From contig JAQTTB010000001.1 in the NCBI GenBank assembly GCA_028710985.1, forward strand, positions 19,280 through 83,279: a stretch of 64,000 nt of DNA, in the 5' to 3' direction. This stretch comes from Patescibacteria group bacterium (GTDB taxonomy: Bacteria; Patescibacteriota; Patescibacteriia; JAHJFT01). How positions within the stretch are numbered: the first letter of the stretch is position 1; the number at the start of each line of letters is the position of its first letter. This document shows, piece by piece, positions 3,407 to 64,000 of this stretch. A program made the position numbers and the translations under genes. The notes beneath the pieces are model-generated. The model was not told the DNA's origin and searched no databases. It saw only the letters and a list, made by a program, of their open reading frames with translations.

Positions 3407-3991
3407 CTATATCGAAATCCGACAAAATCGACGAATTTCCACTTTCTCCCCAAGCGTCACGATCCGGTCATTGATCAAGTCCGCAATCGTCTTATCTTCG
3501 TCCTTTATAAATACCTGGTTCATAAGGCAAACCTCGCTGTAATACTTGGCAAGCTTGCCCTCCATAATTTTATCCATGATTGCTTCGGGTTTTCCTTCGG
3601 CCACGAGTTCTTCGCGGTACATCTCCTTCTGTTTTTCCAGAATCTCCGCGGGAATATTTTCGGGCTTGAGATACAGCGGCTCGGTTGCCGCAACCTGCAT
3701 GGCAATGTCATGCGCCAGTTCTTTGAATATTTCGTTACGGGCAACGAAATCGGTTTCGCAAAGAATCTCAATCATGGCTCCGACCTTGCCGTTTGCATGT
3801 GTATAAGCGTGCACTATTCCTTCCTTCGTCACCCTTTCGGCGCTCTTTTTCGCCGCCTTGATCTGGCCTTTTTTCTTTAAAATTTTCACCGCTTCGTCGA
3901 TATCGCCAGCGGCTTCATCCAGCGCCTTCTTGCAATCAAGCATGCCCGCGCCAGTAATTGTACGCAATTTTACCACTTCTTGTGTTTCCAT
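3407..3991 (-). CDS. tsf: translation elongation factor Ts (short form)
   Basis: 194-aa ORF with the N-terminal UBA-like motif LRTITGAGMLDCKKALDEAAGDIDEAVKILKKKG. It directly follows rpsB, the conserved rpsB-tsf order. Confidence 0.9.
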   Translation of the reverse strand: METQEVVKLRTITGAGMLDCKKALDEAAGDIDEAVKILKKKGQIKAAKKSAERVTKEGIVHAYTHANGKVGAMIEILCETDFVARNEIFKELAHDIAMQVAATEPLYLKPENIPAEILEKQKEMYREELVAEGKPEAIMDKIMEGKLAKYYSEVCLMNQVFIKDEDKTIADLINDRIVTLGEKVEIRRFCRISI

Positions 3992-4898: not shown

Positions 4899-4972
4899 TA
4901 GCTTGTAGGAAGTAGCTTGTAGCTTGTAGGACGCGACCTATTAAGATCCTACAAGCTACAAGCTACAAGCTA
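4899..4972 (+). repeat. hairpin built from tandem 7-nt AGCTTGT words in the leader of the 698-aa membrane-protein gene
   Basis: TAGCTTGTAGCTTGTAGGA (4913-4931) is the exact reverse complement of TCCTACAAGCTACAAGCTA (4947-4965), with a 15-nt loop. Extra word copies flank it (4899-4910, 4966-4972). It is preceded by an extended -10, TGTTAAAAT (4891-4899), and ends 2 nt before the ATG at 4975. Confidence 0.9.
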
Positions 4973-7109: not shown

Positions 7110-8275
7110 TATTTTACCAACTCCAGCAATTTGCTGATATAATTTTCCAGTCCATATTCCGCCACCGTCTTCCGACAGGCCTCGCTCATGCCCGCAAGCC
7201 GCGCCGGATCCGCTATGAACGGCTTAATTTTCGCAAGCAGCTCGTCTTTCGCCCCCGGCGTAAAAGTCCACCCGTTCTCCCCTTGGCGCACGAGCTCCCC
7301 GGCTCCGCCAATGCGCGATACAAGCACCGGCACTCCGGCAGCCAGGCTCTCGGAGATTACGGCCGGCGAATTCTCGTAGCAAAATGACGGCACGATGGCG
7401 AGATCCGCCCCGGAAAAAAGTCGTCCAATCTCTTCACGCGGCCGCGGACCTAAAATATTTATTCGCGCATCGCCCGCGGCGATTTTTTTTATTTCTCCAA
7501 GATCCGAACCACCACCCGCAACCGCAAGATGCCAATCGCCGGGCAGATCCTTAAGGGTTTCAACCAGCCACCGCGCGCCCTTGTGTTTCTCAATCTGGCC
7601 GAGATACAGCAGATTAAGCCCGGGGTGCAATATTTTTTCCGCCATCCCTGCCAGGGGCGCGGGATTCGGCAAAACCTCAACGCGCGAGTCTTTAAAAAAT
7701 CCCTTATTTTTATAAAATTCCGCGAGCCAGCGCGACGGCGAAACAATGAGCCGCGGCGAACCAAAAAGCCGGCGCGAGTACGCTTCCCAGATCTTCCGCA
7801 CGAACGAACGCTCCGCCTTTGCTTCTTCCCCCCAGAGCATGAGTCCGTTCGGCGCAGAAAGCTGAATGTCGTGTGCCACGTGCACCCAGCGCTCGCTCTC
7901 TGCCTTGAGCGCCAAAACTCCGAGCATGCCCAGGCCCCTAAGATTATGGCTTACGATAAGATCCGGCACTTCTTCCCTAATCGCGCGCCGCATCATGCCC
8001 AAACCCGCAAGGCTCATGGCGTCCAGCGCGTGCCAGATCGCGCGCGCCGCAAAACCGTGCTCTCCGATATTTTTATACCAAAAAATATTAAGCGGAAAAA
8101 AGCGGCAAATTTTAATGCCATCCGCCTTGTCGCAGGCAAAACCGCGCGGACCGCTCGAGAGCACCGCCACCTCGTGCCCGGCATCGCGAAACCCGCGCGC
8201 CTGGAGTTCAGCCACCCGCTCGGCTCCGCCCCGCGCCTCGGGCGGATACAAATTTGAGACAATCAGAATCTTCAT
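7109..8275 (-). CDS. glycosyltransferase, GT-B fold, family 4-like
   Basis: 388-aa ORF with N-terminus MKILIVSNLYPPEARGGAERV and the C-terminal E-x7-E region CYENSPAVISESLAAGVPVLVSRIGGAGELV. Confidence 0.85.
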   Translation of the reverse strand: MKILIVSNLYPPEARGGAERVAELQARGFRDAGHEVAVLSSGPRGFACDKADGIKICRFFPLNIFWYKNIGEHGFAARAIWHALDAMSLAGLGMMRRAIREEVPDLIVSHNLRGLGMLGVLALKAESERWVHVAHDIQLSAPNGLMLWGEEAKAERSFVRKIWEAYSRRLFGSPRLIVSPSRWLAEFYKNKGFFKDSRVEVLPNPAPLAGMAEKILHPGLNLLYLGQIEKHKGARWLVETLKDLPGDWHLAVAGGGSDLGEIKKIAAGDARINILGPRPREEIGRLFSGADLAIVPSFCYENSPAVISESLAAGVPVLVSRIGGAGELVRQGENGWTFTPGAKDELLAKIKPFIADPARLAGMSEACRKTVAEYGLENYISKLLELVK

Positions 8276-9420
8276 AATTTAAAATATTGCCCACGCATCT
8301 TCCCGACGATTACCGGCCAGGTAAATTCCGCCTCAATCCTCTCGCGCGCCCGCTCCCCCATTTCTTTTACACTCTCCGGATCCGCGGCCATATCGTTAAT
8401 CGCCTTGGCAAGGCCGTTAACATCCTTCGGCGCCACCAGCGCGCCGGTTCTGCCGTCCTGCACCACATAGCGCACGCCCGGAAGACTGCTCGCGATCACC
8501 GGTTTTCCGCAGGCGCCGGCTTCGAGCGCCACGAGCCCGTAGGCTTCGGATTTATCAACCGAAGGAAATGTGAGCGCGTCGGCCAAATTATAATATTGCG
8601 GCAATTCGCGGTCATCCACTCCCCCGGCAAAAAATACGCGCTCCCCCAGGCCGGCGGAGGCGACGATCTGCTCAAACTCCGGCCGGCGGTCGCCGTCTCC
8701 CACGACAAGCAATTTAATCTTTTTATCTTTGACTGTCTTTACTGCCTCAATCAATTTATCCAGTCCCTTGAAATAATGCGCGCGGTCCAATCCGCCGACA
8801 AAGAGCAGGACAAAATCGCTGGCTAGAATATTATATTTTACGGCGAGCGTCTCCAGCCGGTGGCCGGGCGAAAAAAATTTCTCGTCCACCCCGAGATTTG
8901 AAACCACGAATTTTTCCGGATCCTGAGCCACGAATTTCGCCAGATCCCCGGCCTGGGCGTAATCAAGCGTGGATACAAAAACCTTATCCGCGGCCGCGAG
9001 AATCCGCCGCAAAAATAACCGCCGGTATAATCTGAAAAACAACCCTATTGCTCCCCTTCCTACCGTATCCATATGATACGTAACAACCAGTTTGTTCTTT
9101 TGTTCTTTTGTTCTTTTGTTCTTTTTCCAAAAAAGAGCCGCTTCCGCTCCGCCAAAAAACGGATAGTGCAAATGAACGACATCAAATCCGTCCAGCATGT
9201 CCGCAAGATGCGGCACCCAGGCGGCATTGCCGTAGCGGATGACCGGCTTAAGATAAATTACGTTAAAATCAAACTTCAGCCGCTCGGCTCCCCGGGGCGT
9301 CGGGCAAAACACCGTCACCTCGTCGCCGAGACGCGCGAGCTCGCGCGCGTGCGCGTATGCCACGTTGCCCATACCGCCGCGATAAGGAGGAAATGTCGAT
9401 GTGATTATCGCTATCCTCAT
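8272..9420 (-). CDS. glycosyltransferase, GT4-like, carrying an internal 8-nt x4 tandem repeat
   Basis: 382-aa ORF: MRIAIITSTFPPYRGGMGNVAY...KSEAYGLVALEAGACGKPVIASSLPGV. 4-nt overlap with the downstream GT4. Confidence 0.85.
   Translation of the reverse strand: MRIAIITSTFPPYRGGMGNVAYAHARELARLGDEVTVFCPTPRGAERLKFDFNVIYLKPVIRYGNAAWVPHLADMLDGFDVVHLHYPFFGGAEAALFWKKNKRTKEQKNKLVVTYHMDTVGRGAIGLFFRLYRRLFLRRILAAADKVFVSTLDYAQAGDLAKFVAQDPEKFVVSNLGVDEKFFSPGHRLETLAVKYNILASDFVLLFVGGLDRAHYFKGLDKLIEAVKTVKDKKIKLLVVGDGDRRPEFEQIVASAGLGERVFFAGGVDDRELPQYYNLADALTFPSVDKSEAYGLVALEAGACGKPVIASSLPGVRYVVQDGRTGALVAPKDVNGLAKAINDMAADPESVKEMGERARERIEAEFTWPVIVGKMRGQYFKL
9091..9122 (-). repeat. perfect octanucleotide tandem repeat (TTTGTTCT)x4; sense strand (AGAACAAA)x4
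   Basis: Four exact contiguous copies read directly (9091-98, 9099-106, 9107-114, 9115-122). They encode codons ~100-110 (KKNKRTKEQKNK) of the GT4 gene. The unit length is not a multiple of 3. Confidence 0.95.
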
Positions 9421-9450: not shown

Positions 9451-9593
9451 TTAGTCAAAAGTTAAAAGTCAAAAGTCCAAAGTCAAGTCTAAAATTTTTT
9501 AGTCCAATCTCTCCAGCTGAATGTATCTATAACTTTTTGACTTTTAACTCAACTTTTAACTTTAGACTTTAGACTTTTAACTACAAAACAAAC
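9451..9593. repeat. intergenic inverted block of 7-nt periodic words (AAAGTYN x5 versus CTTTWRA x5-6)
   Basis: The left block, 9451-9494, carries GTTAAAAGTCAAAA (9461-9474) and AAGTCTAAA (9485-9493). The right block carries their complements: TTTTGACTTTTAAC (9535-9548, 14/14), GACTTTTAAC again (9572-9581) and TTTAGACTT twice (9561-9569, 9568-9576). It fills the 173-nt gap between two co-directional GT genes. Confidence 0.75.
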
Positions 9594-10712: not shown

Positions 10713-11037
10713 CTTCACTCTTCTCTCCCACCGCGATTTCGCGGGTAATTTTTGTGATATTTTTTTCGATTGACTGAATTTTAATGAATATTCTGAACGC
10801 GAGATAAAATAACAGCACGATTGAAAGATATGTCGCAAGATCCGCGCCGCGCTCGACTCCGAACCAGGCCGCCGCCACGTCGGTTTTCTTTGGGATTACC
10901 GCCGCCGCGCTGACCGCAATCCAAAACAAAAGCCAAACCGCGAGCCATCCGGCGGTAATGTCTTTTGATCGGTACTTGCGGAACGCTCTCCAGGCCGCAA
11001 TCGCCGCAAATAATATAATAACCGCTTGAATTATCAC
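10693..11037 (-). CDS. small membrane protein, DUF2304-like (usual partner of polyprenol-phosphate GT2 enzymes)
   Basis: 114-aa ORF with a GTG start in a GTGA overlap with the upstream GT2 stop. Three TM helices plus the C-terminal amphipathic IFIKIQSIEKNITKITREIA. Confidence 0.65.
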   Translation of the reverse strand: MIIQAVIILFAAIAAWRAFRKYRSKDITAGWLAVWLLFWIAVSAAAVIPKKTDVAAAWFGVERGADLATYLSIVLLFYLAFRIFIKIQSIEKNITKITREIAVGEKSEDAKKHE

Positions 11038-11705
11038 AAAAATTTATTTAATAAATAATCCCAGACTATTTTTAACGAGCCGAGCGATCTCTGTCCTTTC
11101 GCCAGGCTTTCCGGCGTGTATTTAACCGTTACCGGCACTTCGACATATCTTAATTTGTTCCTTCCGATTTCGTCAAGAATTTCCGAAGCGTGAGCCATTC
11201 TGTCCTGGGTAATTTTAATCTTCTCGGCCGCCTCACGGCTCAATGCGCGGAATCCGTTATGCGTGTCTGTGACCCTAAGCCCGGAAGTCAAACGGGTAAA
11301 AATTATACCACCCATAAGCACGAGCTGGCGCAAAGCCGGCACATTGGATTTTTTTCCCAAAAACCGCGAGCCCAGCGCCACATCCGCCCCGCCAAGAATA
11401 ATCGGCTTCACCATCTCGTCAATCTCTTCGGCCAGATGCTGGCCGTCAGCATCATAATGCACGATAATATCCGCGCCCAGGCTCCGGAGAGTGAATTCGG
11501 TACCCGTGGCAAGAGCCGCCCCCTGTCCACGGTTAATCACGTGACGCAGTACCACCGCTCCGGCCGTTCTTGCGACTTCAGCCGTCGCGTCGGTTGAACC
11601 GTCATCAACAACTACGGCGGCATCAATATGCGGCTTTATATCTTCTATGACTTTCGTGATAGAAGCCTCCTCGTTGTAAGCTGGTATTACTGCTACTATT
11701 TTCAT
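11034..11705 (-). CDS. glycosyltransferase family 2, polyprenol-phosphate sugar synthase-like (soluble DPM1/GtrB-type)
   Basis: 223-aa ORF: KIVAVIPAYNEEASITKVIEDI...VVVDDGSTDAT...HYDADGQH. Confidence 0.8.
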   Translation of the reverse strand: MKIVAVIPAYNEEASITKVIEDIKPHIDAAVVVDDGSTDATAEVARTAGAVVLRHVINRGQGAALATGTEFTLRSLGADIIVHYDADGQHLAEEIDEMVKPIILGGADVALGSRFLGKKSNVPALRQLVLMGGIIFTRLTSGLRVTDTHNGFRALSREAAEKIKITQDRMAHASEILDEIGRNKLRYVEVPVTVKYTPESLAKGQRSLGSLKIVWDYLLNKFL

Positions 11706-11731: not shown

Positions 11732-11960
11732 GTCATTCCCGCGAAGGCGGGAATCCAGAAACAGTATACCTTGCGGATTCGATTTATAAACTGTCACACA
11801 AATCACTCCAAAGCGGATTGCAGTCTTCAATGAATTTAATCTTTTAGACCCTTTCCACTTATTGGAGGATGCAAATATAGAACTGCCGATAATCGGACAT
11901 AGCATAAATAAGTAGCCCCGAGATTAATTGGTTGTGGATTCCCGCCTTCGCGGGAATGAC
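11732..11960. repeat. MITE-like unit bounded by 26-bp perfect terminal inverted repeats, each a REP-type hairpin
   Basis: GTCATTCCCGCGAAGGCGGGAATCCA (11732-11757) is the exact reverse complement of TGGATTCCCGCCTTCGCGGGAATGAC (11935-11960). The arms are 177 bp apart. Each arm is itself a palindrome (ATTCCCGC-GAAG-GCGGGAAT). It occupies the gap between two co-directional genes. Confidence 0.7.
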
Positions 11961-11964
11961 AGTT

Positions 11965-12978: not shown

Positions 12979-13082
12979 AATTTTTGTATTTATTTTATCA
13001 AGTTTATATGTATATTTTAGACGAAATCACGCTTTTTGGCAAGGAGCGAGAATAATAATAAAACGAGCCGATTAAAGCCCGC

Positions 13083-13114
13083 TTTGTTCCATTGTTCTAT
13101 TGTTTTATTGTTCT
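13083..13114 (-). repeat. 8-nt periodic word array (sense AGAACAAT AAAACAAT AGAACAAT GGAACAAA) across the GtrA-like stop codon
   Basis: The plus strand reads TTTGTTCC ATTGTTCT ATTGTTTT ATTGTTCT. This is the same word family as 9091-9122 and 53967-54074. The stop codon is at 13097-13099. Confidence 0.8.
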
Positions 13115-13552
13115 CTTAAAAATGAATATTTTCTGAAAAAAGAAATTAATAAAATAGAGAATGGCATACACCACAAATTTTGCCGCCACGTCCCAGATTC
13201 CGAGGTAATGCACCGTGACAAACAGCAGGCCTTCGCCGATCAAAAAAACCACAAGCGCGTTAATCCAATAAACCGCATACTGCCTGACCACGCGCTTATC
13301 CGTATCGCCGAAAGTATAAGTCTTGTTAAACCAATAACCCACGATCGCGCCGAGCGTCATGCTCACAAAATTCGCCAAAAGATAATGTATGCCGAAAATT
13401 TTTGTGAGCAATAGATACGTCCCAAAATCAACGCCGGTCGCCCCGGTCCCCACGATCGTGAACCGCCACAGCTGTTTGATGGTTTGAAAAAGATTTGATT
13501 TTTGAGATATATTTTTGAGATTTGAGATTTGAGATTTGAGATTATCTTCCAT
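13097..13552 (-). CDS. GtrA-like family membrane protein (putative lipid-linked sugar translocase)
   Basis: 151-aa ORF with 4 TM helices: RFTIVGTGATGVDFGTYLLL...LANFVSMTLGAIVGYWFNKTYTF. Confidence 0.75.
   Translation of the reverse strand: MEDNLKSQISNLKNISQKSNLFQTIKQLWRFTIVGTGATGVDFGTYLLLTKIFGIHYLLANFVSMTLGAIVGYWFNKTYTFGDTDKRVVRQYAVYWINALVVFLIGEGLLFVTVHYLGIWDVAAKFVVYAILYFINFFFQKIFIFKRTIKQ
13514..13541 (-). repeat. perfect heptanucleotide tandem repeat (TTTGAGA)x4 in codons 4-13 of the GtrA-like gene
   Basis: Exact copies at 13514-20, 13521-27, 13528-34 and 13535-41, plus an isolated fifth copy at 13501-07. The array also lies in the divergent promoter region of the priming transferase gene. 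Confidence 0.95.
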
Positions 13553-13613
13553 ACTCTTGAAATTTTATCTAATATTAGTTAATATATGCCCACAAGCACA
13601 TATATTATCTCCT

Positions 13614-14993
13614 ATGACCGACACCATTGTCAAAGTAAAGAAAGCCCTGCTCGTGCTCGGCGACCTCGCGGCCGCCTATTCTTCGCTTTATCTTACCCTG
13701 CTTTTACGCTACCGCGACGGCCTGAATCTTGAAGCCTGGCAGAGCCATCTCGTCCCGTTCACCGCAATTTACCTTGCCTGGATTGTGGTATTTTTTATAA
13801 GCGACCTTTATAACCTGAACACCGCGCGAAACACCGTGGATTTCCGCCGACGCTTCTTCCAGGCTCTGGCAATCAACGCCCTGATCGCGGTCGCCTTCTT
13901 CTACCTCAATCCCGCCGTCGCTATTGCGCCAAAAACCAACCTTATTATCAACATCGCAGTTTTTGCGATTCTCGCCTACTTTTGGCGCGCGATTTTCAAC
14001 CTCGCGGCTTCACATTCAATTTTCGCGAACCGCGTGCTCTTTATTGGTTCACAGAAAAAATTTCAAGACATCATGCCCGACCTCGCACGAGGCGCCTATC
14101 ACGACTGGAAGGTCGTTGCCGTTGTCGACCCGCAGGAGATTAAAGAATACCGCCGCGACAACGTCAGTTTTTATAAAAACACCACCCCGCTTTCCGAAAT
14201 CATTAACCAGGAAAAAATCAGCACCATCGTGCTCGGCCTCTCCCCGGAAGAGCACCCGCGTCTCGGAAGAGAACTCTACGACTGTATCTTTGCCCATTCA
14301 ATCGCAGTCGTGAATTTGCCGAAATTTTATGAAATCGTCACCCAGCGCCTGCCGGCCGATTTGCTTTCAGAATACTGGTTTTTGGAAAATATCAAAGAAA
14401 TGGACAAAAAATTCCACGACTCGGCAAAGGCCATCGCCGATATCGCCCTCTCAATCGCCTTTGGCGCATTTTTCCTCGCCACCCTACCGATTATCGCGGC
14501 CGCGACACTGATCGACAGCGGCTGGCCAATTTTTTACACCCAGAACCGCGTCGGCCGCCGAGGCAAAATTTTCAAAATCATCAAATACCGCACCATGTAC
14601 CGCGATGCCGAGCTCCAGGGCGCGCTCTGGGCTAAGCGCAACGATGCACGCATTACCCGCGTCGGCCGCTTGCTCCGCAAAACCCGGCTGGACGAACTGC
14701 CGCAGATTATCAATGTCCTCAAGACCGACATGAGCTTCATTGGCCCGCGGCCGGAACGCCCGGAATTTGTAGCTGATTTGGAACGCATGATGCCGTTCTA
14801 CGCTCTCCGCCACTTAACCCGGCCCGGACTCACCGGTTGGGCGCAAATCAATTATGAATACGCCGCGAGCTACGAGGAAAATTTGAAAAAACTACAATAC
14901 GATTTATACTATATCAAGAACCGGTCACTCCTCTTGGACTTTAAAATACTTTTAAAGACCGCCGGGATTGTAATAAGCAGGAAGGGGCAATAA
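13614..14993 (+). CDS. polyprenyl-phosphate sugar-phosphate transferase (WbaP/EpsB-type priming enzyme)
   Basis: N-terminal TM helices, a central domain, and a C-terminal Bac_transf motif region: RDAELQGALWAKRNDARITRVGRLLRKTRLDELPQIINVLKTDMSFIGPRPERPEF...PGLTGWAQIN. The ORF-track TTG start at 13536 is probably an extension. ATG at 13614 (MTDTIVKV) is preferred. Confidence 0.85.
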   Translation: MTDTIVKVKKALLVLGDLAAAYSSLYLTLLLRYRDGLNLEAWQSHLVPFTAIYLAWIVVFFISDLYNLNTARNTVDFRRRFFQALAINALIAVAFFYLNPAVAIAPKTNLIINIAVFAILAYFWRAIFNLAASHSIFANRVLFIGSQKKFQDIMPDLARGAYHDWKVVAVVDPQEIKEYRRDNVSFYKNTTPLSEIINQEKISTIVLGLSPEEHPRLGRELYDCIFAHSIAVVNLPKFYEIVTQRLPADLLSEYWFLENIKEMDKKFHDSAKAIADIALSIAFGAFFLATLPIIAAATLIDSGWPIFYTQNRVGRRGKIFKIIKYRTMYRDAELQGALWAKRNDARITRVGRLLRKTRLDELPQIINVLKTDMSFIGPRPERPEFVADLERMMPFYALRHLTRPGLTGWAQINYEYAASYEENLKKLQYDLYYIKNRSLLLDFKILLKTAGIVISRKGQ

Positions 14994-28919: not shown

Positions 28920-29399
28920 TTAATTCTCTTTAAAGCAAAAAACGAATCTTTTATTAATTAAAAATGTAAAAAAGGACATTAATAATCCGACCAGGGCAAC
29001 GGATAAAAGGTAATAAAAACCTAAAATAGTTGTTAGCAAATAGACCAAAGTGAAGGTAATTAATCCTATTGCGCCATATATCGCGAGATAACCAAGGTAC
29101 CTTGCAACATAACCTGATTTTCCATGACCAGAAAATGTAAATAATGAATTCATTATAAAACTAAAAGTCCAGGTAATAAAAGTTGCGATTACAAAAGATA
29201 ACATGTACCAAAAATGCAGTGATTCAGTAAAAATGAAAGTTAATAATAAATTCAACAAAAAAGAACTGACTCCAATGATGAAAAATATCGGATATCTCCT
29301 AAAGATATTTATTATATTCAAAGCCATCTTGAAAAAATTAATAAAGTCACGCTTCAACAATTTTCTTTTTACGACCTCCGAATTTCCATGAATTGCCAT
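28920..29399 (-). CDS. GtrA-like small membrane protein
   Basis: 159-aa ORF with 4 TM helices, ending in FLINKRFVF. The start may be the internal ATG at 29327 (MALNIINIF), because 29399 overlaps the upstream gene by 53 nt. Confidence 0.6.
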   Translation of the reverse strand: MAIHGNSEVVKRKLLKRDFINFFKMALNIINIFRRYPIFFIIGVSSFLLNLLLTFIFTESLHFWYMLSFVIATFITWTFSFIMNSLFTFSGHGKSGYVARYLGYLAIYGAIGLITFTLVYLLTTILGFYYLLSVALVGLLMSFFTFLINKRFVFCFKEN

Positions 29400-41337: not shown

Positions 41338-41396
41338 GAACGAATTTTTGGCTATATCAAGAGAAAAAACAAAAAAAAGAAATAGAGAAAAAGACT

Positions 41397-41789: not shown

Positions 41790-41854
41790 TATATCACCCG
41801 TTTGACCACATTTTTCTTCTTTTCTCTTTTTCCTTATTTCTCAATACAACCCTC

Positions 41855-43021
41855 ATGCCACCAAATTCCCCAAAAAAGAAATTATTGCATCTCATTACTC
41901 AACCAACGTGGGGCGGCGCCCAGCGCTATATTTTTGATTTGGCCTCAAGCCTCAAGGACGAATTCGACATCACGGTCGCGTCCGGCCCGCTTCGCCAAAG
42001 CGAAAGCGAGGCGAGCGAAATTAAGGATGGCCGCGAGCTCCTTGACCGTCTTGAGGCCCAGGGCATAAAGACACGTGTTTTCCCTCACCTTATCCGTGCC
42101 ATCAATCCAATAAGAGATTTGCAGGCTTTTATACAAATCTTCGTATATCTATACGCCAATAAATTCGATACCATCCACTTAAATAGCAGCAAAGCCGGCG
42201 TCCTCGGCTCCATCGCCGCTAATATTCAGTCGGTTCCGAAAATAATTTATACCGCACATGGCTGGGTTTTTAATGAACCCATGCCAACCTGGAAAAAGAG
42301 ATTCTATAAATGGGCCGAACGCCTGAGCGCCAAACATAAAACAAAGATTGTCACCCTTTCCCGTTTAGAAACCGAGATCGGGGTACTTGAGCGCATTGCG
42401 CCGGCTGAAAAATTTGTACAAATCTATCACGGCGTAAAACCGATTGAATTTCTTTCATCCGATCAGGCCCGCGACGAACTAAAAATACCGCGCCAGATTC
42501 CGGTAATCGGTTGCATTGCCAATTTTTATGAAACCAAGGGCCTGGAATATATCGTCAAAGCCTGGCCGCAAATCATCGCCGCAATTCCTGACGCCCAGCT
42601 CGTGATTATCGGCGATGGCGCGCTTCGAAAAAAACTTGAATCGCTGATTAAAAAATTAAATCTTGATGAAAACATTGCGCTTGCCGGCTCCCGGCCCGAT
42701 GCTTCAAAATATTTAAAAGCTTTTGATGTTTTCGCGCTCCCGTCGGTTAAAGAAGGCCTTCCCTACGTGATTCTTGAGGCCATGCAAGCCGGTGTTCCGA
42801 TCGTGGCGACGCGCGTCGGCGGCATTCCAGAGATGATTGAGGACGGCGCAAGCGGCCGGCTCGTCCCGCCGGCTGATTCGGCCGCCCTTGCAACCGCGAT
42901 TATAAAAATTCTGCAAAACAAAAATCTCGGCGAGTCATACGCCGAGAACGCGCGCCAAACGCTGACGCAAAAATTCAGCTTTGAAAGAATGATCGAACAA
43001 ACCCGATCGTTATACAACTGA
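41855..43021 (+). CDS. glycosyltransferase, GT4-like
   Basis: 388-aa ORF: KLLHLITQPTWGGAQRYIFDL...VKEGLPYVILEAMQAGVPIVATRVGGIPEMI. Confidence 0.85.
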   Translation: MPPNSPKKKLLHLITQPTWGGAQRYIFDLASSLKDEFDITVASGPLRQSESEASEIKDGRELLDRLEAQGIKTRVFPHLIRAINPIRDLQAFIQIFVYLYANKFDTIHLNSSKAGVLGSIAANIQSVPKIIYTAHGWVFNEPMPTWKKRFYKWAERLSAKHKTKIVTLSRLETEIGVLERIAPAEKFVQIYHGVKPIEFLSSDQARDELKIPRQIPVIGCIANFYETKGLEYIVKAWPQIIAAIPDAQLVIIGDGALRKKLESLIKKLNLDENIALAGSRPDASKYLKAFDVFALPSVKEGLPYVILEAMQAGVPIVATRVGGIPEMIEDGASGRLVPPADSAALATAIIKILQNKNLGESYAENARQTLTQKFSFERMIEQTRSLYN

Positions 43022-43028
43022 GCATCAA

Positions 43029-43263
43029 TAAAATCCCTCTCTGCCTCTCCCTTCCTGCCTGCCGGCAGGCAGGTTGCATACTTTTGGTTACAAAAGTATG
43101 TCCTGCTGAAAGCAAACAAGAGTGGTGCTAGAAAAGATAATTATTGCCCAGACAGGTGGCAGGCAAGAACTTAAAAATCCCAATATTAAAACAACTTGTA
43201 CGATAATATATAATAGGATTCCCCCGGTACATTGAACCTGGATTCCCGCCTTCGCGGGAATGA
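43029..43263 (+). repeat. mosaic palindromic-unit repeat, copy A
   Basis: In order: AAAATCCCTCTCTG..CTCTCCC; the 20-nt perfect palindrome CCTGCCTGCCGGCAGGCAGG (43053-43072); the hairpin CATACTTTTG-GTTA-CAAAAGTATG; a ~130-nt body; and the REP hairpin TGGATTCCCGCCTTCGCGGGAATGAC (43238-43263). 43051-43263 aligns with 56985-57198 at roughly 85-90% identity by eye. Confidence 0.85.
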
Positions 43264-43370
43264 CAAAAGTAAGGCAGGAATGACAAATGGCGCTAAGATT
43301 TTTATAGCAAGATTCCCGCCGGAGCCTGCCCTCATGCAAATGGGGGGGGTGGCTAAAAATATCGTCAACC

Positions 43371-43405
43371 AAAAAACCACTCCGACGTTACGTCGAAGTG
43401 GTTTT
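43371..43405. terminator. bidirectional terminator after the Wzy_C-TPR gene
   Basis: AAAAAACCACTCCGACG-TTA-CGTCGAAGTGGTTTT: ~11-bp GC-rich stem with one mismatch, flanked by an A-run and a T-run. It lies 12 nt downstream of the stop at 43417. Confidence 0.65.
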
Positions 43406-56844: not shown

Positions 56845-56984
56845 GTGCATCTTAGTCAGAACATGGGGTTCGGGGGCGCAACTGAGCATGGCGCTAGGAA
56901 GCAGTGAATTGCCTATTTGCCGAGAGCGAACCCGCCTGCCAACGCCTGGCGTAGGCCTGGCGGGCAGGTTTGCGACCCCGAAAC

Positions 56985-57384
56985 TTCCTGCCTGCCGGCA
57001 GGCAGGTTGCATACTTTTGGTTACAAAAGTATGTCCCGCTGAAAGCGAACAAGAGTGATGCTAGAAAACAATAATCAATACCCAGACAAGCGGCAGGCTG
57101 TGGCTAGAAAATCCCAATATTAAAACAACTTGCACGAAAATATTTAATAGGATTCCCCCGGTACATTGAACCTGGATCCCCGCCTTCGCGGGGATGACGA
57201 AGAGAGCACTTTGCCACTTACCGTCATTCCCGCGAAAGCGGGAATCCAGAAACAAAGCCCCTCCAAAATCCCTCTCTGACACGTCGCTCGCGAGCGACGT
57301 GTCTCTGTCTCCCCCTTCCTGCCTGCCGGCAGGCAGGTCAGCCACCCCGAAACTTTTTGGTTACTTTTTGGTTACAAAAAGTAA
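56985..57384 (+). repeat. mosaic palindromic-unit repeat, copy B (expanded)
   Basis: 56985-57198 parallels copy A, with the same palindrome, hairpin, body and REP. It is followed by an inverted second REP (57223-57248), then the AAAATCCCTCTCTG...CTCCC unit interrupted by the palindrome ACACGTCGCTCGCGAGCGACGTGT. A second CCTGCCTGCCGGCAGGCAGG follows (57317-57336), then the hairpin TTACTTTTT-GGTTAC-AAAAAGTAA. Confidence 0.85.
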
Positions 57385-62694: not shown

Positions 62695-63773
62695 AATTTT
62701 GTATACAGAGACTGGTATTCATACGCCATTTTCTGGATTGAAAATTCCTTCTCCGTGTAATCCTTGGCCTCTCTTGCCATAAAGAGCGCCTCGCTCGGAT
62801 GCTCGATCATCCATTCAATCGCCTTGGCAAGCGCCGCCTCGTCGCGCGGCGGAACAAGCAGGGCGTTCTTTTTATCTTGAAAAATATCTGCGAGTCCGCC
62901 GACCGCGGATGCGATTATCGGCAGGCCGCTCGCCGCCGCCTCGATCGCCGCGAGTCCCATGCCCTCCCAGAGCGACGGAAAAATAAAAATATCCGCTTGA
63001 GCAAGCAAACTCGGTACATCCTGACGGGCGCCCAGTAATTCGATACGATCCTCGAGACCTAATCCCCTCACGTCGGCAATAATCTTTTCCCGCAGTGCGC
63101 CCTCTCCGACAAGCCACAGCATCCACGGCGTGTCTTTTATTTTATAAAGCGCGCGCACCAAATATTCATGCCCCTTTTGCGGCTCAAGCCGCGCCACATT
63201 GATAAGAACCGGCGGTGATGAAAAGTTTTGTTTTTCCTTTTTTGAAAAACGCGAAAAATCAATACCGTTATATATAATTTTAATTTTATTACGCGGTGCG
63301 CCCTCATGCACCACGGCGTAATCCGCCACGGCCGGCGAGACGGCAATAATTTTTTTGAATATGCCGACCGTCATTTTTTTTATAATTTTCTTTAACATGC
63401 CTTCATTCAAATTCAAATTGTGTTCGGTCTTCACGATCGCCGGAACGCCGGCAAACCGCGCCGCGAGCCCGGCCCAGATATCCGCGCCAAAAAGATGCGT
63501 ATGCACGATTGCCGGTTTTTCTTTTTTGAATAACAGATACAGCGATAAAAAGACTCCAAGCCCCAGCCTGGTGCGCTTAACTAAAACGAGCGGCCTGATA
63601 CCCGCTGCGATAAAATCTTTTTCCAGATTGCCGCCGCGCACCATTGAAACGACTCTGACTTCAAAGATATTTTTATCCAATTTGGAAACCAAATCCAAAA
63701 CCAGCCGCTCCGCGCCTCCGTAGCCAAGAGTCGTAATCACCTGAATAATTTTAATTTTATCCCTCTTTTCCAT
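62691..63773 (-). CDS. glycosyltransferase, GT4-like
   Basis: 360-aa ORF: IKIIQVITTLGYGGAERLVLDL...LWEGMGLAAIEAAASGLPIIASAVGGLADIF. Confidence 0.85.
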   Translation of the reverse strand: MEKRDKIKIIQVITTLGYGGAERLVLDLVSKLDKNIFEVRVVSMVRGGNLEKDFIAAGIRPLVLVKRTRLGLGVFLSLYLLFKKEKPAIVHTHLFGADIWAGLAARFAGVPAIVKTEHNLNLNEGMLKKIIKKMTVGIFKKIIAVSPAVADYAVVHEGAPRNKIKIIYNGIDFSRFSKKEKQNFSSPPVLINVARLEPQKGHEYLVRALYKIKDTPWMLWLVGEGALREKIIADVRGLGLEDRIELLGARQDVPSLLAQADIFIFPSLWEGMGLAAIEAAASGLPIIASAVGGLADIFQDKKNALLVPPRDEAALAKAIEWMIEHPSEALFMAREAKDYTEKEFSIQKMAYEYQSLYTKL

Positions 63774-63803: not shown

Positions 63804-63825
63804 CTTCCTTATTTCGTTTTTTTCG

Positions 63826-64000
63826 TTATTTCGTTTTTTCCTCTTTTCTTTTTTTCTTCTCCAGATGCGGCCGCTCTTCGTGACGAAAAACTTTGGTCGC
63901 CGCGAGCGCCAAAGCGAGCGGAATCCATAACTTTGGGCTGTAATAATTTGTATTAAATAATTGATAAGTCATACTTCCCGCGGCCATCACGAGGCACGAA
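63826..64000 (-). CDS. C-terminal fragment of a membrane protein (N-terminal part lies outside the window)
   Basis: Own translation of the minus strand: ...SCLVMAAGSMTYQLFNTNYYSPKLWIPLALALAATKVFRHEERPHLEKKKRKEEKTK*, with the stop at 63826-63828. Not in the ORF track because it runs off the edge. Confidence 0.35.
   Translation of the reverse strand, partial: SCLVMAAGSMTYQLFNTNYYSPKLWIPLALALAATKVFRHEERPHLEKKKRKEEKTK

Follow-up and report, generated by a model that had tools for sequence, protein, structure and literature searches.

We analysed a stretch of 64,000 nucleotides from a Patescibacteria group bacterium (assembly GCA_028710985.1, contig JAQTTB010000001.1), referred to below as the window; the contig it was taken from is at least 744 kb long. 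The subject is a heptanucleotide array in the 5' coding region of a gtrA-like gene of 151 amino acids, located on the minus strand at window positions 13097-13552. Its product matches Pfam PF04138 (GtrA_DPMS_TM; E=1.2e-21, profile positions 1-117 of 117) over residues 30-145, has hydrophobic segments spread over residues 47-146 and is identical to NCBI MDD4994878.1 from a Patescibacteria metagenome-assembled genome (MAG). In the opposite direction, at 13614-14993 on the plus strand, lies the gene of a polyprenyl-phosphate sugar priming transferase of 459 residues (Pfam Bac_transf, E=6e-62). A first-pass annotation of this DNA had proposed both gene families, and the domain searches bore it out.

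Directly after the gtrA stop codon a terminator-like hairpin is predicted (13060-13085, minus strand), followed by a gene for an NAD-dependent epimerase/dehydratase and by one for a small family 2 glycosyltransferase (GT2) of 223 residues (11034-11705, minus strand). The hairpin suggests that gtrA is monocistronic, in which case a frameshift would not necessarily have a polar effect on the epimerase. The only solved relative of this GT2 is 5MLZ, the dolichol-phosphate mannose synthase (DPMS) of Pyrococcus, whose catalytic domain it matches with E=4.7e-17. A DPMS-type glycosyltransferase is thus encoded near gtrA, and it is likely to be the GtrA partner that makes the lipid-linked sugar. The same gtrA-epimerase-GT2 order is found in the closest relative (L122, GCA_018813925.1). 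A second GtrA-family paralogue is encoded in the same glycan region (28920-29399, minus strand), which makes it plausible that loss of the repeat-bearing gtrA is non-lethal. A separate low-complexity array of period 8, TTGTTCTA x3.9 at 13084-13114, overlaps the gtrA stop codon.

The array and the start codon of gtrA

Read on the plus strand, the array consists of four perfect TTTGAGA units (13514-13520, 13521-13527, 13528-13534 and 13535-13541) followed by TT, with a fifth perfect copy at 13501-13507, exactly as first described. On the minus, coding strand the unit is TCTCAAA. The four units occupy nucleotides 12 to 39 of the gtrA coding sequence (CDS), from the third base of codon 4 to codon 13, and encode the residues (N)LKSQISNLK; the fifth copy corresponds to nucleotides 46-52 (codons 16-18), and a decayed unit of 6 nt, AATATA, sits between the two. 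A wider degenerate array of period 7 was delimited by Tandem Repeats Finder (TRF) at 13491-13543 on the minus strand (7.7 copies, 74% match, repeat family D3), and the decayed units flanking the four perfect ones are its older part. Relative to the transferase ATG at 13614, the four units lie 73-100 nt and the fifth copy 107-113 nt upstream, in agreement with the earlier estimate of 70-110 nt.

This array is not due to chance. A three-unit TTTGAGA pattern, with up to two mismatches allowed, had no second site on either strand of the 64 kb and was absent from all of 100 dinucleotide-preserving shuffles, while hand arithmetic gives a chance expectation for four perfect 7-mers of about 64,000 x 4^-21, roughly 1e-8. 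The window contains only three perfect arrays in which a unit of 7-8 nt is present in three or more copies. The array is also unlike most others there, being perfect, coding and made of a unique unit, with no inverted partner of the kind that other window arrays have and no RNA structure (the 5' mRNA of gtrA including the array is unstructured, z=0.08). No other TTTGAGA/TCTCAAA array was found in the window or in 117 other loci.

Whether the repeat is coding depends on the start codon, and ATG 13552 is the best-supported one from sequence comparison. Translation from it gives the N-terminal peptide MEDNLKSQISNLK and a hydrophilic extension (residues 1-26) that is mostly repeat-encoded; between the array and QLWRF, the conserved motif with which the domain begins, there is no in-frame ATG, GTG or TTG. 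A protein-guided search recovered four related metagenomic loci (L047-L050, Bac_transf 63-65% identical) which keep the divergent gtrA/Bac_transf pair with a spacer of 60-80 nt, and in which GtrA has an N-terminal extension of about 25 residues starting from an ATG at the equivalent position (MAKDINKIEEILAKILFF...QIWRF). Extensions of about 25 residues were also found in L122 and in the homologues P0003-P0006. Conserved synteny and N-terminal length in the relatives therefore support ATG 13552, the repeat lies inside the gtrA CDS as had been proposed, and the possibility raised in the first-pass annotation that the true start lies downstream of the repeat fails, since all four related loci keep the ATG-started extension. 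A downstream ATC start at codon 25, considered by analogy with the L122 protein P0002, was rejected because the P0002 start is itself probably mis-called. In L122, whose GtrA is 65% identical, the annotated start (GTG 1160, 125 amino acids) probably leaves out part of the N-terminus; translation from ATG 1095, 65 nt further upstream, yields the extension seen in P0003-P0006 (MNSLNKFETFLIRIFFFIKKETVAQLWRF).

The sequence of the extension is unconserved among relatives, and that of the window protein is equal in length (26 residues), most of its residues having been replaced by repeat-encoded ones. Relatives with a 44-65% identical GtrA have no repeat at this place, so that the array is lineage-specific. 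The comparison with related genomes that had been suggested was thus informative on the conservation of the start codon and promoter; on copy number it was not, the relatives being too distant.

Reading frame, promoters and comparison with known switches

To follow the effect of copy number on gtrA, alleles with 0 to 9 units were built in silico. Full-length GtrA was read from ATG 13552 only with 1, 4 or 7 units, the assembled allele of four units being in frame (ON). With 2, 3, 5 or 6 units, translation stopped after 36-67 amino acids, and in the out-of-frame alleles no rescue start (ATG, GTG or TTG) was present in the frame of the membrane domain upstream of that domain. The claim that a one-unit change would frameshift gtrA is therefore correct: mechanically, each slippage by one unit amounts to a null mutation, from which one or two further steps can lead back to an intact gene. 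Contingency loci switch reversibly at rates of about 1e-2 to 1e-5 per division. Judged from its sequence, the gtrA array has their structural attributes, namely an uninterrupted repeat inside a reading frame, a unit length not divisible by three, and loss of the full-length product upon gain or loss of a unit with restoration upon further change.

The closest precedent is neuO of the E. coli K1 prophage CUS-3, in which a heptanucleotide AAGACTC repeat lies in the 5' CDS of a capsule-modifying O-acetyltransferase; only copy numbers that are multiples of three give the full-length product (PMC13001214). Natural alleles of neuO have 3-53 copies, 20 being the most common, and in a measured mixed population 93% had 21 repeats, about 2% had 20 and about 5% had 22 (PMC13001214). 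Both systems share a 7-nt unit in the 5' CDS of a gene that modifies a surface polysaccharide, an ON state at each third copy number and, in neuO as here, a hydrophilic heptad N-terminal peptide. They differ in protein family, organism and ON register (copy number 1 modulo 3 for gtrA), and whereas variation has been measured over 3-53 copies in neuO, the gtrA array has four copies and is known from assembled sequence. In surveys of H. influenzae, heptamer or octamer tracts of at least three units were taken as candidates (PMC2651432). The lipooligosaccharide and capsule loci of Haemophilus, Neisseria and Campylobacter also carry frame-shifting simple sequence repeats (SSRs) in glycan genes, often several per locus, to which the window adds an octamer in a family 4 glycosyltransferase (GT4) gene described below; those repeats, in contrast, are typically tetranucleotide or poly-G tracts made up of many units, and their bearers are host-adapted pathogens in which high rates of switching have been proven.

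The gtrABC clusters of Salmonella and P22 resemble the present case in their target, a gtr glycan-modification gene set starting with gtrA, and are phase-variable by Dam methylation and OxyR acting on GATC pairs in OxyR sites upstream of gtrA (PMC2909390). As no GATC is present in 13480-13660, this mechanism is inapplicable here, and the first-pass annotation had rightly set it apart as a different, methylation-based one.

The array also lies in a divergent promoter region. The predicted transferase promoter, obtained by consensus scan and alignment (13557-13585, plus strand), comprises TTGAAA (13557-13562), a spacer of 17 nt and TAATAT (13580-13585). Its -35 is invariant in the four related loci, and in the alignment with L047, L049 and L050 the invariant positions are CTTGAAA and the first bases of the -10. 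The array is located 15 nt upstream of the -35, roughly at -51 to -78 from the inferred transcription start site, and for this reason the -35/-10 spacing cannot change with copy number. The earlier suggestion that slippage would alter promoter spacing for the priming enzyme does not hold, the conserved -35/-10 sitting between the array and the transferase. For gtrA, a consensus scan points to a promoter on the minus strand (13604-13633; TTGACA, 18 nt, GATAAT; 11/12 match) which would fall within the first codons of the divergent transferase, and hexamers resembling it were read by eye in L047 and L049. The inferred gtrA leader (13573-13612, minus strand) contains a strong Shine-Dalgarno-like AGGAGA followed by a mini open reading frame (ORF) of 8 codons (ATG 13599-13597 to TAA), which is unconserved in relatives and probably due to chance.

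This arrangement brings to mind a cis-acting role, in which the array would tune translation initiation of gtrA or provide UP-like or protein-binding DNA for the transferase promoter, and its copy number would set a level rather than switch gtrA. Its position upstream of the inferred transferase start site would suit such a role, as would the unstructured 5' mRNA of gtrA, the A/C-rich array and a weak Shine-Dalgarno sequence (AAGAG). Elsewhere, arrays stop 2-4 nt short of a start codon (4949-4972 before ATG 4975, 41359-41394 before ATG 41397, and 1055-1090 before ATG 1095 in L122), TAACTGA heptamers directly precede start codons in Beggiatoaceae with a proposed role in translation (PMC4679880), and the hmw heptamers of H. 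influenzae, about 100 bp upstream, modulate transcription (PMC2651432). The hmw1A and hmw2A tracts have 13-38 copies about 70-105 bp upstream of the start (PMC2651432), a distance similar to the 73-100 nt seen here; they lie, however, within the promoter or leader, whereas the gtrA array is upstream of a conserved -35 and inside the CDS of another gene. Any unit change within this CDS would frameshift gtrA first, a 7-nt period is out of helical phase, relatives keep the same promoter without the array, and no candidate binding protein was identified. We regard a cis-acting role as improbable.

Copy number in assemblies and the case for a proposed switch

Independent evidence on the array came from Logan assemblies of the read sets SRR22315506 and SRR22315509, which were 100% identical to the window wherever aligned. 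Logan contigs are built at k=31 with singleton k-mers dropped and the graph simplified with Minia3 (PMC12424806). Four contigs from the two read sets carried the array beside the correct flank, with four units in L001 and L003 and three units plus 5-6 nt in L002 and L120. Because these short-read contigs reproduce both the array and its flanks independently, the array is real and not an assembly artefact. Repeats are error-prone in some long-read assemblies and the MAG contig is long (744,538 bp), so that an erroneous array or copy number was considered; with all or nearly all four units found in four short-read contigs otherwise identical to the window, and with the frame intact at four units, we hold such an error to be very improbable.

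All the same, none of these contigs crossed the array. L001 (11.9 kb) started at 13514 and L120 (28.4 kb) at 13515, whereas L003 ended at 13541 and L002 at 13539; the contigs broken within the array thus include ones of 28.4 kb, 11.9 kb and 1.6 kb. The epimerase-bearing contigs on record were all below 2 kb (3/3; two of them read at the sequence level) and none ran through the array into the transferase; from the contig size, a third read set would also break at the array. We simulated the assembly graph at k=31, the periodic stretch being 30 nt and hence shorter than k. A monomorphic locus of four units gave no break. Adding any allele of at least five units split the graph once, so that the left unitig stopped at 13514 and the right one began at 13543, and the observed contig ends matched this prediction within 0-4 nt. 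A three-unit allele cut the graph after the third unit, a pattern absent from the Logan contigs, though such a bubble might be popped.

Several controls were available. The graph of the whole window predicted exactly, from the window's own repeats, the end of contig L121 at 43080. A perfect octamer array, (AGAACAAA)x4.4, was found by repeat finding in the GT4 gene 8272-9420 (9091-9125, minus strand, 35 nt); it would break the simulated graph if polymorphic, yet three Logan contigs crossed it unchanged, and five further arrays were likewise crossed unchanged. Elsewhere, the 13.4-kb contig SRR22315506_1726 ended at 9568 inside TTAGACT x2 (9562-9575), in the right arm of a hairpin array; a simulated mixture of one and two copies broke at 9570, 2 nt beyond the contig end, and copy number may therefore vary in this second array too. 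A possible coincidence of GCCTCAA x2 near 41942 with the other end of the 28.4-kb contig was dropped, as another sample crosses that repeat.

Searches for a length variant of the gtrA array were negative. An exact DNA search with the array/flank junction returned 0 matches in JGI metagenomes and 0 in GTDB representative genomes, and no second or close strain was found in either collection. The 90% clusters of GtrA, GT4, epimerase and GT2 contained no length variants, all being single-member. The exact GtrA product was absent from the gene-position index, because every Logan contig is cut in the array, and the expected product of an OFF allele (GTG-34 start, 118 amino acids) was likewise not on record. 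Taken together, the assembly-graph breaks indirectly suggest that longer alleles coexist in the source samples, and we consider copy-number heterogeneity within the gtrA array somewhat more probable than its absence.

On these grounds we tentatively propose, at a little under an even chance, that the array is a slippage-prone translational frameshift switch of the neuO type. A heptanucleotide repeat would have expanded recently within the 5' coding region of gtrA; with four units as assembled, or with 1 or 7, ATG 13552 would be read through to full GtrA, and other copy numbers would end after 36-67 amino acids without rescue. Acting with the nearby DPMS-like GT2, GtrA would present the polyprenyl-phosphate-linked sugar with which a surface polymer is decorated, so that slippage would switch a single glycan modification on or off in a fraction of the cells. 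Such a scheme would entail a meaningful slippage rate, a mixed population and a surface-glycan phenotype. Four identical units beside decayed ones imply recent or ongoing turnover, and the path from one to four units by single-unit steps passes through OFF states. An OFF state is plausibly tolerable given the second GtrA paralogue and the terminator after gtrA.

Several observations weigh against this proposal. No alternative copy-number allele of gtrA was seen in the Logan contigs; the contig ends fall 0-4 nt short of the predicted break, which is unexplained; and in simulation an unrelated locus with at least 5-6 TCTCAAA units elsewhere in the genome or metagenome would give an identical break. 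Four units are few compared with proven heptamer switches, and the equally long octamer at 9091-9125 shows no heterogeneity in three contigs. TRF reported 12-13 arrays of period 7-8 in the 64 kb, 8-9 of them lying wholly within the 6% of non-coding DNA. In L122, almost all intergenic gaps hold arrays of period 7-8, seven of which fall within 4 kb (JAHJAN010000042.1, including 917-936, 1055-1090, 1553-1687, 2791-2823, 2920-2976 and 3655-3729), and one of them, (CTAAAAAG)x4.5 at 1055-1090, ends 4 nt before the likely gtrA ATG 1095, where no frameshift is possible. The gtrA array could thus be one more lineage-wide product tolerated in a dispensable N-terminal tail. When the first-pass annotation proposed a switch it had missed these many arrays; the frame-shifting capacity it described stands, and this context weakens the inference of selection.

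The alternative these observations favour is an incidental array. A lineage-wide tendency to form arrays would have produced a frame-preserving expansion of three units (21 nt) in the poorly constrained tail of GtrA, four units would be fixed, and rare slippage would yield deleterious or neutral nulls. Besides the abundance of mostly intergenic arrays in the window and in L122, the heptamer family AGTYAAA/TAACTTT is shared by the two genomes at non-homologous sites, the sequence of the N-terminal extension is unconserved, the MAG consensus is in frame, the tract is short and the GT4 octamer is monomorphic in three assemblies. This account nevertheless leaves unexplained why the Logan assemblies stop at the gtrA array yet cross six other arrays. 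The perfect identity of four units whose neighbours have decayed points to recent turnover, and one triplication of 21 nt is less likely than stepwise slippage through OFF states. We think an incidental origin quite possible, although well short of an even chance.

Other arrays and the surrounding glycan region

As judged by its unit, which recurs neither in the window nor in 117 other loci, and by its coding position, the gtrA array falls outside the class of dispersed intergenic heptamer arrays, into which the other window arrays do fit. Short tandemly repeated repetitive sequences (STRR) of cyanobacteria are dispersed intergenic heptamer arrays. TAACTGA heptamer arrays are likewise dispersed in Beggiatoaceae and cyanobacteria (PMC4679880). 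The window and L122 resemble both in their intergenic arrays of 7-8 nt, some ending a few nt before start codons, and in indels that occur in unit steps. They differ in that the window arrays use many units with no one dominant heptamer, several forming long inverted-array hairpins, while the gtrA array is unique in the window, coding and devoid of an inverted partner. The AGTTTAA/TAACTTT inverted pair of L122 belongs to the same family as the window arrays at 9453-9582 and stands at a non-homologous site; because of this sharing, the array families seem to be dispersed and not only of local origin. In relatives further removed, arrays of 7-8 nt are few or absent.

Three inverted array pairs of the window form long hairpins. 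They lie at 4899-4929/4949-4972 (RNA z -7.9), ending 2 nt before ATG 4975, at 9453-9486/9530-9582 (RNA z -4.1) and at 53967-54002/54035-54064 (RNA z -9.9), where the pair encloses a classical bidirectional terminator hairpin between convergent genes. Among further low-complexity arrays of period 8 at gene borders, a purine-rich one (41359-41394) ends 3 nt before ATG 41397, a pyrimidine-rich one (41811-41842) lies 12 nt before ATG 41855, and purine-rich arrays at 63805-63860 lie upstream of a gene starting at 63773.

Elements of another kind were also noted. A palindromic sequence resembling repetitive extragenic palindromic (REP) elements (GTCATTCCCGCGAAGGCGGGAATCC) recurs at 11733-11757, 11937-11961, 43040-43380 and 56980-57350; the copies give the typical spurious translations VIPAKAGIQ, SRLRGND and FPRRRESR, two clusters share 30-mers, and Logan contigs end at these elements. 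The two predicted ORFs of 94 amino acids within them (43088-43372 and 57061-57345) are probably no genes. A G8 tract at 43342-43349, considered as a poly-G switch, was rejected because it lies in such a spurious ORF.

The gtrA locus belongs to one large glycan region of about 7 to 41 kb of the window, partly of low G+C, which is rich in GT4 and GT2 genes and also encodes methyltransferases, a Wzx-like flippase and the second GtrA. No dedicated GtrC-type extracytoplasmic transferase was identified, and several large ORFs of the window have no Pfam match. Within it, a block of about 25 kb (16000-41000), with a G+C of 0.35-0.42 as opposed to 0.46-0.56 in the flanks, is densely filled with GT4 and GT2 genes and methyltransferases and includes an asparagine synthase, a radical SAM/SPASM enzyme and the second GtrA paralogue. 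It has the look of a surface-glycan island, either variable or acquired.

The octamer of the GT4 gene encodes the lysine-rich loop KKNKRTKEQKNK, and a one-unit change in it would frameshift the gene; GT4 homologues have a K-rich loop of similar length without the repeat. A 91%-identical truncated GT4 (P0013) was considered as an OFF allele of the octamer and rejected, as it proved to be a junction with the 3' end of an unrelated gene through the octamer array. This junction was seen in contig L123 (ENA ERZ841149 NODE_39257, coverage 1.5x), where positions 380-480, compared with window 9090-8217, join the 3' end of the unrelated gene (FtsK-like by eye), an octamer array of the GAACAA type and the C-terminal two thirds of GT4. 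Either the assembly is chimeric here, through k-mers that the arrays share, or the arrays were the site of a real rearrangement.

A broader interpretation would be that this lineage uses arrays of 7-8 nt as a small phasome, in which at least two glycan genes (gtrA and GT4) carry frameshift-capable, population-variable arrays that generate stochastic surface-glycan diversity, the same array families also acting as hairpin-forming intergenic elements and recombination junctions. We judge this unlikely on present evidence. Were it true, SSR-based phase variation would be described for the first time in the Candidate Phyla Radiation (CPR), in an ultra-small and probably host-attached bacterium. 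In the full-text library searched, no paper connected Patescibacteria or CPR with phase variation, SSRs or heptamer arrays, nor did any connect GtrA with SSRs.

Contingency loci have so far been described almost only in host-adapted pathogens and, recently, in phages, and it is through the cell surface that Patescibacteria are thought to attach to host cells and to be exposed to phages. If the gtrA array is invariant, it would be an ordinary low-complexity N-terminal tail, and the lineage-wide abundance of arrays of 7-8 nt would then be the more interesting observation. If its copy number varies, contingency-locus biology would extend to an uncultivated Patescibacterium with a reduced genome, and the switch, if real, would add a 5'-coding heptamer switch of the neuO kind to a lineage from which there has been no report of one.

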